Notes under the pieces: generated by a model
Told to the model about the DNA's origin: nothing
The model's input: the letters and a program-made list of their open reading frames with translations, nothing else
Database searches by the model: none
Program-made: the position numbers and the translations under genes
Source of the DNA: Candidatus Sumerlaeaceae bacterium
Lineage (GTDB): Bacteria > Sumerlaeota > Sumerlaeia > Sumerlaeales > Sumerlaeaceae
NCBI GenBank assembly: GCA_049968255.1
Contig: JBMFRB010000002.1
Coordinates: forward strand, 128,001-192,000
DNA length: 64,000 bases
Direction: 5' to 3'
Part shown: positions 50,033 through 54,046 of the stretch, in pieces
Layout: every line of letters starts with the position of its first letter
How positions within the stretch are numbered: position 1 is the stretch's first letter

Positions 50033-51151
50033 ATGACTGAACGAAGACTCAGCAAGGTTTTGCTCGCGGCAGGTGGCACGGGTGGCCACATTCTGCCAGC
50101 GATTGCTCTCGGGCGTGCGCTAGAAGAAAGGGGCCTGGCAAAAGTCTCCTATCTATGCGGCCAACGGCCGGTGGAACTCGACCTCTACAGCCGCGAGAAC
50201 ATCGAGCCAATTGTGGTTCCCGTTCGGCAGTTGGGAGCTTCTGTGCTCGAACGACTACGTGGCGGCTGGGCCGCGATTGCGGTGACCTGGCGATGCAGGC
50301 GGTTGATCCACGAGGAGCGATTTGACGCGGTCGTGGGGATGGGGGGATACGTTTCAGGGCCGGCCGTATTGGCGGGGATCGTGACCAGACGCGCAACGGT
50401 TATTCACGAGGCGAATTCTGTGCCGGGCAAAACAAACCGCTGGCTGGCCCCATGGGTCAAGATGGTTGCGGTGAACTTTTCACGCACGGCCTCGCAGCTG
50501 CGCAGCAGACAATGTGAAATTGTGGGCATGCCAATTCGCAGCCGAATCTTGCATGGGTTTCGGGAAAAAGGAATAGAGCTTTTTGGACTCGATGCGCGCA
50601 AGCGAACCTTACTCGTTGTAGGGGGCAGCCAAGGCGCACGCAATCTCAACTACGCACTCGCTGGGGCGCTGCCCCTGCTCGACAGGCCGGAATTCTCGGA
50701 TGTGCAGCTCCTCTGGAGCACGGGAGCGAGTCATTACGACAACCTTGTAGGCTTGGTGAGTCGGCTAGGGCTTCAGCATTTACGTGTGAAATTGGTTCCG
50801 TTTATCGCGGAAATGGAGCATGCGCTCGCGTGTGCAGACGCGGCGATTTCTCGAGCTGGGGCGAGCGCGATTGCGGAGCTTCTTGCCACCGGTGTGTTTG
50901 CTCTGTATGTGCCTCTGCCAAATGCAATTTACGATCACCAGCGAAAAAACGCACTGGAACTGGTTTCTGCTGGACTCGGCATGATGTTGCTCGAGCACGA
51001 GATGACTCCCCAGACAACGATGTCTGCGATTGCCGAACTTCTTGCTTTAGCGCCAGCAAAGCGAGAGGCTGTGGCAGCAGCAGGGGAGATTCATCGCCAT
51101 GCGGCGGAGAAACTTGCCATGCTTGTGAGTGAGGCAGCGAATTCGCGGTGA
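50033..51151 (+). CDS. murG: UDP-GlcNAc:lipid I GlcNAc transferase
   Basis: GGTGGHILP, GMGGYVSGP, HEANSVPG.TN, GGSQGA and SRAGAS. Confidence 0.93.
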   Translation: MTERRLSKVLLAAGGTGGHILPAIALGRALEERGLAKVSYLCGQRPVELDLYSRENIEPIVVPVRQLGASVLERLRGGWAAIAVTWRCRRLIHEERFDAVVGMGGYVSGPAVLAGIVTRRATVIHEANSVPGKTNRWLAPWVKMVAVNFSRTASQLRSRQCEIVGMPIRSRILHGFREKGIELFGLDARKRTLLVVGGSQGARNLNYALAGALPLLDRPEFSDVQLLWSTGASHYDNLVGLVSRLGLQHLRVKLVPFIAEMEHALACADAAISRAGASAIAELLATGVFALYVPLPNAIYDHQRKNALELVSAGLGMMLLEHEMTPQTTMSAIAELLALAPAKREAVAAAGEIHRHAAEKLAMLVSEAANSR

Positions 51152-51166
51152 GCAAATGAGCCTTTG

Positions 51167-51988
51167 TTATTGAGTTAACTTCGATCTCCAGCGGACGTAT
51201 CCAAGGAGACCAATCCCAAGCAGAATCATGATGGCGCAGAGGATTTGTCCCATTGTCATCCAGCCGAAATAGTAGGGAAGTTGCGGATCTTTCTCTCGAA
51301 AGAATTCCAACAGGAAGCGGATACAGCCGTACCAAAGAAGGGCCACACTTGTGATTGTCCCATGATTTTTGACGCGCCGCCGTATGGACCAGAGCAAAAG
51401 AAACAGAAGGATGCCCTCGCCCAAAGCTTCGTAAAGCTGCGAAGGGTGACGAGCTGACGTGTAGTTGAGGATGTTGCCCATGTCGTCGTAGATCGGAAAT
51501 CGCATGGCCCACGGCATGGCTGTGGGGCGTCCGTAGAGCTCGGCATTGATAAAATTGCCGAGCCGACCGAGCGCAATGCCTGGGGCCGCAGCAATGGCTA
51601 GGCTGTCCGTCAGATTTAGCAGAGGAAGGCTGTGGCGGCGGGCATAGAAATAACAGATGAAGATCATGCCGATGGCGCCTCCGTGAAACGACAGGCCGCC
51701 GTGCCAAATCGCGAAAGGGGTGTACCACCAGACAAACGGCGAGTCGGGTGTTGGCACATAATATACGAGCATGTAAATGCCCCGTGCGCCAATCAGCATT
51801 CCCAGAAAAAGAGAGAGCAGAAAACTTTCGATACGCGTTTCTGACAGGCGTAAAAAGTTTTCGCGCGCGAGTTTCCGCAAAATTTGCCATCCGATGAGAT
51901 AGGCGAGAACGTACATCACGCCGTACCACCGAATGCGTAACGGGCCGATACGCAGCAGCTCTGGGCCAATTTCGGGATACCGAATCAT
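51167..51988 (-). CDS. lgt: Prolipoprotein diacylglyceryl transferase
   Basis: IRWYG, GGLSFHGG, GRLGNFINAELYGRPT, RHPSQLYE and EFFRE; likely start 51988. Confidence 0.96.
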   Translation of the reverse strand: MIRYPEIGPELLRIGPLRIRWYGVMYVLAYLIGWQILRKLARENFLRLSETRIESFLLSLFLGMLIGARGIYMLVYYVPTPDSPFVWWYTPFAIWHGGLSFHGGAIGMIFICYFYARRHSLPLLNLTDSLAIAAAPGIALGRLGNFINAELYGRPTAMPWAMRFPIYDDMGNILNYTSARHPSQLYEALGEGILLFLLLWSIRRRVKNHGTITSVALLWYGCIRFLLEFFREKDPQLPYYFGWMTMGQILCAIMILLGIGLLGYVRWRSKLTQ

Positions 51989-52064
51989 CTTGCGTGGATG
52001 CTCCGATTGATGCCAATCGCCTCGAACACGACACAGCGCCTTGTGTAGCAAAGTCTAGAGGATC

Positions 52065-53462
52065 ATGCGACAAATGGCAGCCAGCATGAACATCACGAAG
52101 CACTATTACACCCCGGATCTGAGCAGATTGAAGGCTATTGCATCTGAGGCTCCACTTTTGAGTCCAGAACAAGCGCAAGAGATCCTCGACCGTTCGGAGA
52201 TCCCCGCGCTTTCATTGCCTGAGGTAGCGGGCTTCGTAAAGGCAGTGCTGAGCAATCCTGTGGGCAAAGTGACGCAACTTGTGCTCGAAAAAGCTGTCGG
52301 ACTTCGTCGCGCACTGTTTAGTGATGCTGTTGTGCCGATGGCGCCGATGGAAATCGCTAACACCTGTGCTTCCGACTGCATCTTTTGTGGCTGGCGTATT
52401 TCCAACAGCGAAATGAAGCGTCTGCGCATGCCCGATGATCTTATTCTTCTTCAGGTCGAGTATCTCCTCGACTTGGGCATAAACTACATCGAATTTGTTT
52501 CCGGTGATGATCTGGTCGCTGTGCGACAGCAGTTGCCGCGATTACTTGCGCGCACGAAAGAACTTTTTCAGGCGCGCGGCGTGGAAGGCAAAACATGCTT
52601 TTGCACCTTGGCGCTAACCGAAAAGCAATATAGTGAGCTACGCGACGGTGGCGCCGATGCGATGATTGTGTGGCAGGAAACCTATGATCCGGACGTTTTC
52701 GCGCGTTACGTCACCGATGGTCCAAAAGCTTTTGGTATCCGTGACGACTGGACGTGGGATAAAAGTGGCAATGGCTGGTTGTTTCGTTACCAGTCGCAGG
52801 AGCGAGCCTTGCGCGCAGGCCTTGAAGTTGCCCTCGGAACGATGCTGGGTCTCAATCCTGATGTAACGTTTGAATTTCTAGCGACAGTGGATCATGCCCG
52901 GTACCTTCTCGACAATTATTCGCTTACGCCCGAACATCCGCTGATCATTGGGATGCCAATCTGGAATCCGATTCCAACTCGCACATCAGACATGCGGAGA
53001 AGCGATTTGCCGGATATCGAGAAGCTCTTTCCGGTTTTTGCTGCCTTGTATTTGCTTAGCCTTCCCACCCCTGCAACGTGGGTTTTCCCGAACTGCCGTG
53101 TGCCTCTGACCGTGCAAGTTGAAGCGGCTCGTGTGGCAGGCGCTTTCACGTCCACCGAGGTCAAGCTCGGTCCGGGAGGTTATCTACCCTCTGTCATTCA
53201 AAAAATGGAAATGCAGGGCAAAAACACGGTCGCGTTGCGCAAGCGACTGGCGAGATTGCTTCGCGAGGCAGGTGAAAATGTGGACGAACTAGCGCGCGCA
53301 CTCGATGAGCGGGAGCAGTTTGTGCACCACTACCATGCCCACGTGGCGTATCTGCGCGCGTTAGCAGACGCAGGCCTGTCCGTTGTGTCCGGGGTGCGCA
53401 TCCCTGAAGTCGCTAAGAATGTATGCCAGAGCCCAGATGTGGTCGTGTGCGGCGAAGGCTAG
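52065..53462 (+). CDS. Radical SAM enzyme, divergent ThiH/HydG/NosL (BATS) family
   Basis: CASDCIFC (CxxxCxxC), VSGD, WQETYD, GPK, RYQSQERALRAG, G.MLGL, PGGY and EQF. Confidence 0.85.
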   Translation: MRQMAASMNITKHYYTPDLSRLKAIASEAPLLSPEQAQEILDRSEIPALSLPEVAGFVKAVLSNPVGKVTQLVLEKAVGLRRALFSDAVVPMAPMEIANTCASDCIFCGWRISNSEMKRLRMPDDLILLQVEYLLDLGINYIEFVSGDDLVAVRQQLPRLLARTKELFQARGVEGKTCFCTLALTEKQYSELRDGGADAMIVWQETYDPDVFARYVTDGPKAFGIRDDWTWDKSGNGWLFRYQSQERALRAGLEVALGTMLGLNPDVTFEFLATVDHARYLLDNYSLTPEHPLIIGMPIWNPIPTRTSDMRRSDLPDIEKLFPVFAALYLLSLPTPATWVFPNCRVPLTVQVEAARVAGAFTSTEVKLGPGGYLPSVIQKMEMQGKNTVALRKRLARLLREAGENVDELARALDEREQFVHHYHAHVAYLRALADAGLSVVSGVRIPEVAKNVCQSPDVVVCGEG

Positions 53463-53965
53463 CGCACGCGACCAAAATCATCCTCGACGCGAACAATGTC
53501 ATCTTCGTCCGACGGATTCTCTGGATCTGTACTTTGCCAAATCTCGGCAATGCGCCCCCAACCGTGCAGGCCAGTGAGCCGATGCCATGCTCCGCAAGGA
53601 ATTTGCACAACTTCACCCGTATCAAACACAAAAGTTTCAAGGCTGGAACCATCTGGGCCGATTTCAATTTTTACCGGCCCGTCGATGACACGCCAGTGTT
53701 CGCATCGGCGATGATGATACTGCAGCGAGAGGCGCTTGCCTGGTGCGACAAGGAGAATTTTAGGGTCAAGACGAAGTCCCTTATCGAGACCACTAACTTC
53801 TGTTCCTTGCCAGTAGGCGTGAAAAAAACGCAGAAAACTCGCTTCGCTGAAGCGCAGAAATCCGCCCCACGGCCGATCGCAGGAAGAGAGTTCTTCAAGT
53901 ATCTCAATGCCAAACCCTCTGGCTTCAGCCTTGAGGCGTTCAAACAACCATTTTTTGAGTTCCAC
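53459..53965 (-). CDS. Stand-alone mannose-6-phosphate-isomerase-type cupin
   Basis: RPWGGF, PGKRLSLQYHHRRCEHW, HRL and EDDIVRVEDDFGR (type II PMI C-terminal cupin). Confidence 0.85.
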   Translation of the reverse strand: MELKKWLFERLKAEARGFGIEILEELSSCDRPWGGFLRFSEASFLRFFHAYWQGTEVSGLDKGLRLDPKILLVAPGKRLSLQYHHRRCEHWRVIDGPVKIEIGPDGSSLETFVFDTGEVVQIPCGAWHRLTGLHGWGRIAEIWQSTDPENPSDEDDIVRVEDDFGRVR

Positions 53966-54046
53966 CTTTCCAGGATCTCCTTCTTACGCGCAACTTGCCT
54001 GCCGACAGCCAGTAGAGTCTATGTTTGCAGGGCTTATTATACGTAA

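Follow-up and report, generated by a model that had tools for sequence, protein, structure and literature searches.

The gene at 52065..53462 on the + strand of a 64,000-nucleotide stretch of Candidatus Sumerlaeaceae DNA (the window) encodes P0001, a radical S-adenosylmethionine (SAM) enzyme of a separate, unnamed subfamily in the ThiH/HydG/NosL structural clade. P0001 has the fold of that clade, its cluster site, and the arginine that holds the substrate's amino and carboxyl groups, and its relatives in other lineages are linked to carboxylate-activating ligases. We judge the chances about even that P0001 is an amino-acid radical lyase or mutase that takes a substrate other than tyrosine and whose acid product goes to a ligase.

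A separate subfamily on the ThiH/HydG/NosL scaffold

The structure model of P0001, built on a 33-row family alignment (A1), has a mean predicted local distance difference test score (pLDDT) of 93.0 and a predicted template modeling score (pTM) of 0.91. The predicted radical SAM barrel is a complete (beta/alpha)8 one and comes with an N-terminal alpha-domain and the CX3CX2C site. In VIA-align overlays the closest structure was ThiH (7pd1_A; Z 45.4, root mean square deviation 2.0 Å, 361 of 366 residues), followed by HydG (4rtb; Z 43.4) and NosL (6hto_B; Z 38.9), with 356 to 365 residues aligned across the three, and then by the more distant folds of HydE (Z 36.7), PylB (32.8), and BioB (32.4). 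Foldseek ranked HydG, ThiH, and NosL first (E values of 1e-23 to 1e-18 for this clade), then HydE, PylB, BioB, and MqnE; the order of families agrees with that from VIA-align. The Z scores against ThiH, HydG, and NosL thus confirm the scaffold that an earlier, sequence-only reading of this DNA had assigned to the gene.

The features of the gene that are discussed below are as follows, with window coordinates and P0001 residue numbers.

52065..53462, + strand: radical SAM gene, an open reading frame (ORF) of 465 amino acids (P0001), with an alternative ATG start at 52074
52344..52352, + strand: P94-M-E96, which replaces PLY of ThiH/HydG; every aligned member has E96, and HydE likewise has Glu in this column
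52365..52388, + strand: C101-x3-C105-x2-C108, ligands of the radical SAM [4Fe-4S] cluster
52602..52604, + strand: C180, at the end of strand beta3, kept in 131 of 133 members; column of ThiH E158 and the HydG Asn
52671..52685, + strand: W203-Q-E-T-Y207, common to ThiH/HydG (YQEVY/FQESY)
52719..52775, + strand: G219-P-K221 and a family-specific 14-residue insertion that ends in G-N-G237; G237 is invariant
52950..52970, + strand: G296-MPIWNP302, which replaces HydG SxPRxxP; the HydG Arg aligns to I299
53088..53102, + strand: P342-N-C344-R345-V346, which replaces STRE; R345 corresponds to ThiH R300 and NosL R323, C344 to ThiH T299
53115..53117, + strand: Q351, kept in 132 of 133 members; column of ThiH R306, a tyrosine-selectivity marker
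53145..53162, + strand: F361-T-S363-T-E-V366; S363 corresponds to ThiH S318 and is kept, V366 to ThiH S321 and is changed
53169..53306, + strand: GPGGY, which ends the barrel, then a helical insert of about 40 residues (374-414) that is absent from ThiH
53313..53342, + strand: E417-QFVHHYHAH426, a conserved His-rich C-terminal motif in a confidently modeled coil

The ATG at 52074 is an equally possible start: P0002, the database twin of P0001, has 462 amino acids, and the Atlas entry for P0001 starts from residue 4. The sequence AGAGGA lies ahead of the ORF at 52057-52062. All motifs named in the sequence-only reading were found where it had placed them in the translation: C101xxxC105xxC108, W203-Q-E-T-Y207, G219-P-K221, R241...E246-R-A, GTMLGL (258-263), GPGGY (369-373), and EQF (417-419), together with the variant strings P94-M-E96, G296-MPIWNP302, P342-NCRV346, and EQFVHHYHAH (417-426). 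We counted conservation over 133 aligned family members of at least 400 amino acids; the three cluster cysteines are kept in 132 or 133 of them. Both insertions that had been proposed were borne out: the segment AFGIRDDWTWDKSGNG (222-237) faces a 14-residue gap in the HydG and ThiH alignments, and residues 374-414 form three helices in the model that lack a ThiH counterpart. These helices, the coil that carries EQFVHHYHAH, and a final helix make up about 60 extra C-terminal residues. The His cluster is present and is a conserved hallmark of the family (H421 in 130 of 133 members, H422 and H424 in 100 each, and H426 in 126).

Among Pfam families, only Radical_SAM (PF04055) matched P0001, and barely (30.2 bits versus a cutoff of 29.5); the BATS domain (PF06968) gave no match at E ≤ 0.1, though the structural superposition covers that region. 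Scores on the NCBIfam models fell far under the cutoffs for ThiH (TIGR02351; 94.5 versus 380 bits), HydG (TIGR03955; 53.6 versus 312.15), NosL (TIGR04158; 22 versus 400), and PylB (33.1 versus 348.2), and the HydE model gave 48.3 bits. The closest solved relatives by sequence were HydG 4rtb (6e-17), HydG 4wcx, and ThiH 7pd1, and a profile search matched HydG at 2.9e-34. The defense models of PADLOC matched neither P0001 nor P0253 (0 families).

The family to which P0001 belongs is sharply bounded. A word-indexed search returned 110 proteins, 108 of them at E ≤ 6e-62 and the next at 1.8e-10, and the family comprises 108 clusters at 90% identity. When 50% representatives were searched exhaustively, 44 proteins matched at E ≤ 1e-30, and bit scores among full-length representatives dropped from 221.7 (P0137) to 94.8 (P0149). 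We scanned 50 of the next-nearest proteins; they include true ThiH (e.g., P0174, 455.5 bits), true HydG (e.g., P0198, 532.3 bits), and look-alikes at 206 to 340 bits on the ThiH model, and all of these are far closer to ThiH than P0001 is. A quick maximum-likelihood tree of 78 rows put the 53 family rows on one side of a branch (Shimodaira-Hasegawa-like approximate likelihood ratio test [SH-aLRT], 86), apart from a 23-row ThiH/HydG clade (98); two outgroup rows, ThiH_G035 and HydGlike_G069, are wrong ORFs that were left in (branch lengths of 3.7 and 4.48) and weaken support for the root. Within the family, clade A (support 99) holds the window group, a group of fused proteins (99), a group from loci with phosphoenolpyruvate (PEP) mutase that includes the Bradyrhizobium-labeled P0090, and the single members P0084 (labeled Evansella) and P0070 (labeled Kiritimatiellia); clade B contains the ATP-grasp contexts. 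Low scores on both the ThiH and HydG models, the gap in scores, and the tree all uphold the proposal of a new subfamily, and P0001 did not cluster with bona fide ThiH or HydG. The term "orphan" fits the local gene neighborhood in the window but not the family, with its 108 clusters and informative fusions.

No curated model for the family was found, and a Protein Atlas look-up returned solely ThiH- and HydG-labeled clusters. We found no paper on the subfamily in open-access PMC and bioRxiv, where the mentions of "ThiH-like" proteins that we examined were unrelated; the portion available of an inventory of phosphonate pathways mentions no such radical SAM enzyme.

The substrate pocket and its cysteines

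Pocket positions were mapped by sequence-profile alignment to HydG and ThiH, with residue roles from PMC9046217, here represented by an excerpt. In ThiH, according to that excerpt, R300 binds the substrate amino and carboxyl groups and is conserved as NosL R323; E158, which is Asn in HydG, contacts the tyrosine carboxylate; and T299, S318, and S321 form a crown around the phenolate with R306 underneath. The S321 bulge and R306 are described as the primary markers that separate tyrosine from tryptophan enzymes, and the E158-carboxylate contact as the sole notable difference between ThiH and NosL near C-alpha (PMC9046217). The HydG string STR-x5-R-x11-S-x2-S has, in our profile alignment, exactly the spacing given in the excerpt. 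C180, ThiH E158, and the HydG Asn fall in one column, as its Glu/Asn statement requires, which serves as a check on the mapping.

By this alignment, P0001 keeps ThiH R300 (as R345) and the crown residue S318 (as S363), and it replaces T299 with C344, R306 with Q351, S321 with V366, and E158 with C180, consistent with the earlier claim that substrate-binding positions are altered; the altered ones are those for tyrosine recognition. Each of the six mapped positions is conserved in 130 or more of the 133 members (C180, 131; C344, 130; R345, 133; Q351, 132; S363, 131; V366, 131); E96 and H277 are invariant (133 each), and E417, Q418, and F419 are found in 131 each. Such features thus mark the family and do not reflect chance. 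The enzyme therefore retains its hold on the amino-acid backbone and has lost all of the tyrosine markers, and the alignment suggests a pocket that fits a substrate other than tyrosine. The claim that the carboxylate-binding Arg is lost was not supported: in the ThiH structure as excerpted, the carboxylate and amine are held by R300 and E158, and R300 is kept as the invariant R345 inside PNCRV. The Arg of SxPRxxP, which aligns to P0001 I299, is not named as a substrate contact in the excerpt.

P0001 thus resembles ThiH (PDB 7pd1/7pd2) in its whole fold, including the N-terminal alpha-domain, in the CX3CX2C, QExY, and GPK motifs, and in the retained Arg and Ser. It differs from ThiH in its low identity (about 20%), its four changed contacts, the Glu in place of the Tyr of PLY, the insertion after GPK, and the extended His-rich C terminus, and its family never adjoins thiG. 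With NosL, a tryptophan lyase that forms 3-methyl-2-indolic acid (PDB 4r33, 6hto), it shares the fold (Z 38.5 to 38.9), a conserved Arg that faces the amino group, and, as far as the excerpted comparison goes, the lack of both a Glu on the substrate carboxylate and an R306-type Arg; unlike NosL, it scores low on the NosL model, and thiopeptide genes were not seen in any of the contexts examined. HydG, the [FeFe]-hydrogenase maturase (PDB 4rtb, 4wcx), is its best sequence match among solved structures and has a similar length, but P0001 lacks the C-terminal motif for a Cys-ligated auxiliary cluster, has a changed tyrosine crown, and comes from a genome without HydF.

The ordinary annotation, a divergent ThiH (tyrosine lyase) or HydG, matches the names given to family members by some sources ("2-iminoacetate synthase ThiH," alongside "hypothetical" and "radical SAM protein") and the fact that the top hidden Markov model (HMM) match is ThiH. 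We find this very hard to credit, however: the ThiH score is one quarter of the cutoff, the tyrosine markers R306, S321, T299, and E158 are all replaced, a true ThiH co-occurs with the family in three genomes, and the window genome has no Hyd system.

Two family-specific cysteines, C180 and C344, line the pocket as mapped: in the model and profile alignment C180 lies after strand beta3 and C344-R345 after beta7, inside the barrel. No Cys after C344 is conserved, and the two tail Cys of P0001 are unconserved and lie in the low-confidence end of the model. The cysteines and histidines raise the possibility of a metallocofactor or second-metal enzyme, similar to HydG or HydE, with a site drawn from C180, C344, and the histidines of EQFxHHYHxH; the barrel would act on this metal site or hand a fragment to it. 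Two extra near-invariant Cys and four conserved His would suit such a site, HydG and HydE are among the closest structures, and HydE, too, has a Glu where P0001 has E96; we nevertheless consider it improbable because only two extra Cys are conserved, because P0001 lacks the HydG-type CX2CX22C and its tail Cys are of the kind just described, and because the window genome has no HydF (best 97.4 versus 325.55 bits), which excludes the HydG role.

The same cysteines could instead serve BioB-type sulfur insertion or other thiol-dependent chemistry, as a redox pair or as a donor of sulfur or of an H atom. In its favor, the fold of BioB is related, BioB ligates its [2Fe-2S] cluster from comparable strands, including through an Arg, and C180 and C344-R345 lie inside the barrel. 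BioB is more distant than ThiH, HydG, and NosL, though, just two Cys are on offer, and the contexts examined showed no sulfur-carrier genes; we regard chemistry of this type as quite improbable.

Ligase links and the proposed chemistry

Evidence for the fate of the product comes from relatives of P0001 in other lineages. Among 15 non-Sumerlaeota loci with a complete gene and a visible neighbor, a carboxylate-activating ligase is fused to the radical SAM enzyme or encoded within two genes of it in 9. Fusions of 865 to 873 amino acids are encoded at five loci (L005, L012, L013, L027, and L033), and all 14 relatives of at least 815 amino acids are 836 to 886 amino acids long. The three fused forms that we scanned (873, 881, and, for an N-truncated one, 758 amino acids) all have an N-terminal PaaK-like domain; this adenylate-forming domain occupies the N-terminal 430 residues and scores 141.9 bits on the DVU_1553-family ligase model (cutoff, 300), one fused form matches PaaK 4r1l in the PDB at 6.3e-21, and PF27533 is listed on two fused proteins. 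Fused forms make up their own clade (SH-aLRT, 99; 46 to 50% identity), and P0001 is a stand-alone protein without the adenylating domain. At L029 a separate PaaK-like gene lies two genes away, in a locus that also has sulfotransferase, sulfatase, and family 2 glycosyltransferase (GT2)-pyruvyltransferase genes; the L005 and L033 fusions likewise come with pyruvyltransferase and sulfatase genes, and L013 has a sulfatase gene.

Three other loci (L034, L035, and L045) have an ATP-grasp ligase gene directly downstream of the radical SAM gene, with major facilitator superfamily (MFS) or EamA transporters present. The cluster at L035:5439-13298 encodes an MFS transporter, a weakly ATP-grasp-like protein, the radical SAM enzyme, the ATP-grasp ligase (a distant DdaF-like match), a periplasmic binding protein, and a histidine kinase; the L034 version has an EamA exporter gene inserted. 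Clusters of this type, including L045, look like those for small peptide-type natural products.

At the near-identical loci L031 and L032, the radical SAM gene lies between genes for a class III aminotransferase and PEP mutase, directly upstream of the latter, and the PEP mutase is a true one (383.3 versus a cutoff of 319.55 bits). The codirectional cluster (L032:3529-13517 and L031:2760-12746) encodes, in addition to these, a methyltransferase, a 128-amino-acid protein of no assigned function, a Cys/Met-type pyridoxal phosphate (PLP) enzyme, a glutamine amidotransferase, an Ldh_2-methyltransferase fusion, and a LysE exporter. The PEP mutase carries a C-terminal extension of about 226 amino acids that belongs to no known family, and no phosphonopyruvate decarboxylase gene was seen in the cluster, which may encode an unassigned phosphonate.

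Two characterized systems offer parallels to these arrangements. The product of NosL is an acid that is then activated by an adenylating enzyme, which resembles the ligase links of the family. PylB, the methylornithine synthase, belongs to the same structural clade and works with the ATP-grasp ligase PylC, a pairing paralleled by the radical SAM and ATP-grasp genes of L034, L035, and L045; fused members reach 78.5 bits on the PylB model. P0001 itself, unlike PylB, falls far below the PylB cutoff, and no pyl genes were seen in the contexts.

From these links and the pocket we propose the following chemistry for P0001 as a lyase or mutase. As its substrate the enzyme would bind a free alpha-amino acid that is not tyrosine, or else a close analogue, and the 5'-deoxyadenosyl radical would take a hydrogen from the substrate amino group; a bond at C-alpha would then be broken or migrate. 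Because the carboxylate Glu of ThiH is missing, as in NosL, a rearrangement like that of NosL or PylB is likelier than C-alpha-C-beta lysis of the tyrosine type, and it would keep or create a carboxylic acid. As the relatives suggest, this acid would pass to an ATP-dependent ligase, PaaK-like (fused or nearby) or ATP-grasp, in a pathway that would build a small molecule or decorate a glycan. In the source organism, housekeeping genes for the envelope and lipids surround the gene, which stands by itself; a partner, if there is one, would be encoded elsewhere.

Several points weigh against this reading. We infer the substrate, the bond broken, and the product, and the mapping of pocket residues rests on alignment of sequence profiles. 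Six of the 15 non-Sumerlaeota loci (L010, L031, L032, L038, L041, and L042) have no ligase, and because the 15 include near-duplicates (L005/L033, L012/L013, and L031/L032) they amount to about five independent lineages. No ligase adjoins the gene in the window's own lineage, and the PaaK-like paralogues of the window genome are far off and only 24 to 30% identical to the fused domain. Finally, ThiG is present in all 10 Sumerlaeaceae genomes with the family, and neither ThiH nor ThiO exceeds the cutoff in any of them, a pattern that fits a role in thiamin synthesis instead and is taken up in the next section. The window genome has three PaaK-like paralogues, two of them adjacent (G000:C2:438364-441207 and G000:C4:70533-71759); it lacks a PEP mutase as well as homologues of the ATP-grasp partners.

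Thiamin genes and gene neighborhood in Sumerlaeota

That pattern is the basis for a possible, if doubtful, alternative: the Sumerlaeaceae enzyme would supply the thiazole synthase ThiG with dehydroglycine (2-iminoacetate) in place of ThiH or ThiO, by C-alpha-C-beta cleavage like that of ThiH but probably of a different amino acid. P0001 may, in other words, stand in for ThiH in this bacterial lineage. The window genome, which is 95.75% complete, encodes ThiG (372.8 bits), ThiC (681.4 bits), and two ThiE-like and two ThiS-like proteins. Its best ThiH match is the P0001 gene (93.9 versus 380 bits), with no other ThiH, and it has no ThiO (best 22.7 versus 250.8 bits); a canonical thiH, which the sequence-only reading had proposed to look for, was found nowhere else in this genome. 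Members of the P0001 family occur in 10 of 75 Sumerlaeota genomes, all in one family of bacteria (f1), where they are present in 10 of 13 genomes. Two of the three exceptions suit the thiamin role: G058 (66% complete) has adjacent thiG-thiH genes and no family member, and G061 (89% complete) has neither ThiG nor a family member. That ThiH is the best structural match and that R300 is kept also favor it.

The third exception does not suit the thiamin role, since G059 (94% complete) has ThiG without ThiH, ThiO, or the P0001 family, and the f1 pattern may reflect one or two evolutionary events among relatives. Outside f1, 38 Sumerlaeota genomes bear ThiG: ThiH is present in 13 of them (one partial, at a contig end) and ThiO in 14 (5 above the cutoff, 8 at 223 to 246 bits, and 1 partial), and 11 have neither and also lack the P0001 family. 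Genomes with ThiG and no ThiH or ThiO over or near the cutoff, and no P0001 family member, are G005, G006, G030, G036, G037, G048, G053, G059, G068, G069, G070, and G072; of these, G068, G069, and G072 encode a ThiH/HydG-like protein of about 480 amino acids (263 to 282 bits).

Holders of the family outside the phylum also speak against a role in thiamin synthesis. All three that have ThiG (G075, G076, and G078) carry a canonical ThiH (401 to 448 bits) adjoining ThiG, plus a P0001 family member; the fourth, G077, has no ThiG. True thiH adjoins thiG in the phylum of P0001 as well (e.g., G058, G035, and G029), but none of 43 P0001-family loci (415 kb) contains thiG, thiC, thiE, or thiS. Four of the six tyrosine contacts are changed. 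The whole family, moreover, shares its pocket residues, which gives no indication that the chemistry differs in Sumerlaeaceae. The only thiamin pyrophosphate (TPP) riboswitch of the window genome lies upstream of thiC (G000:C1:54830-54951), and the scattered thiG, thiE, and thiS genes have none; since the riboswitch precedes only thiC, it does not discriminate for or against a thiamin role. A predicted complex of P0001 (A1) with the genome's ThiG (A2) scored 0.00, which gives no verdict, and we draw nothing from it.

In the window, the genes run in the order trmB-like, prs, GHMP kinase, murG-like, lgt (divergent), the P0001 gene, cupin (convergent), priA, plsY, and gpsA, with genes for GT2 and PMT_2 glycosyltransferases beyond gpsA. 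No thi, hyd, cof, or RiPP (ribosomally made peptide with post-translational modifications) gene adjoins the P0001 gene, as had been noted from the sequence. The immediate neighbors are as follows.

51167..52051, - strand: lgt, divergent; adjacency to the radical SAM gene only in Sumerlaeota loci (window, L002, and L008)
53459..53965, - strand: cupin gene with Pfam and NCBIfam matches, convergent; also in L001, L011, and L024

This gene order recurs in related Sumerlaeota/BRC1 loci and looks like inherited synteny. An apparent linkage to lgt at distant loci was rejected, since it arose from long antisense ORFs that overlie the radical SAM gene. The lgt gene of G059 is found in a different context, so synteny does not demonstrate a clean absence of the radical SAM gene there. 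A 207-amino-acid ORF on the + strand (53423-54046), with apparent homologues in L008 and L025, overlaps the cupin gene almost wholly; since the cupin gene has Pfam and NCBIfam matches and this ORF has none, it is probably a shadow frame. The murG-like gene (50033-51151, + strand), between the GHMP kinase gene and lgt, scores 247.5 bits versus the murG equivalog cutoff of 250.25, and no further cell-wall synthesis gene was seen among its scanned neighbors. In L036 a gene for a LuxE-like acyl-protein synthetase lies two genes away from the radical SAM gene, and in L004 the distance is about 6 kb; the homologue in the window genome (52% identity) is about 119 kb from the P0001 gene. Rfam matched nothing in the window. 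No RNA run was listed as containing the stretch, and one hot-spring DNA run contains 0.29 of its words.

A more ambitious combination of these ideas, which we think unlikely as a whole, is an unrecognized branch of radical SAM lyases for a non-tyrosine amino acid, with a pocket Cys pair and a His-rich second metal or relay site, that has displaced ThiH as the dehydroglycine source of Sumerlaeaceae and whose chemistry elsewhere (in Acidobacteriota, Kiritimatiellia, and further lineages) serves ligases, fused or adjacent, for peptide-like or phosphonate natural products and glycan decorations. If the part of it that concerns dehydroglycine supply in Sumerlaeaceae were true, the family would add a third way to accomplish this step in thiamin biosynthesis, and the automatic "ThiH" labels on its genes would be either corrected or justified.

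The ThiH/HydG/NosL clade is a textbook case of one radical SAM scaffold that steers the fragmentation of amino-acid radicals, and a well-populated sister family is a natural experiment on the choice of the bond that is broken: in this family the backbone Arg is kept, but two Cys, a Gln, and a Val take the places of the carboxylate Glu and of the side-chain crown. The fusions to adenylating ligases, along with the ATP-grasp and PEP-mutase clusters in which the gene lies, point toward metabolites yet to be discovered.

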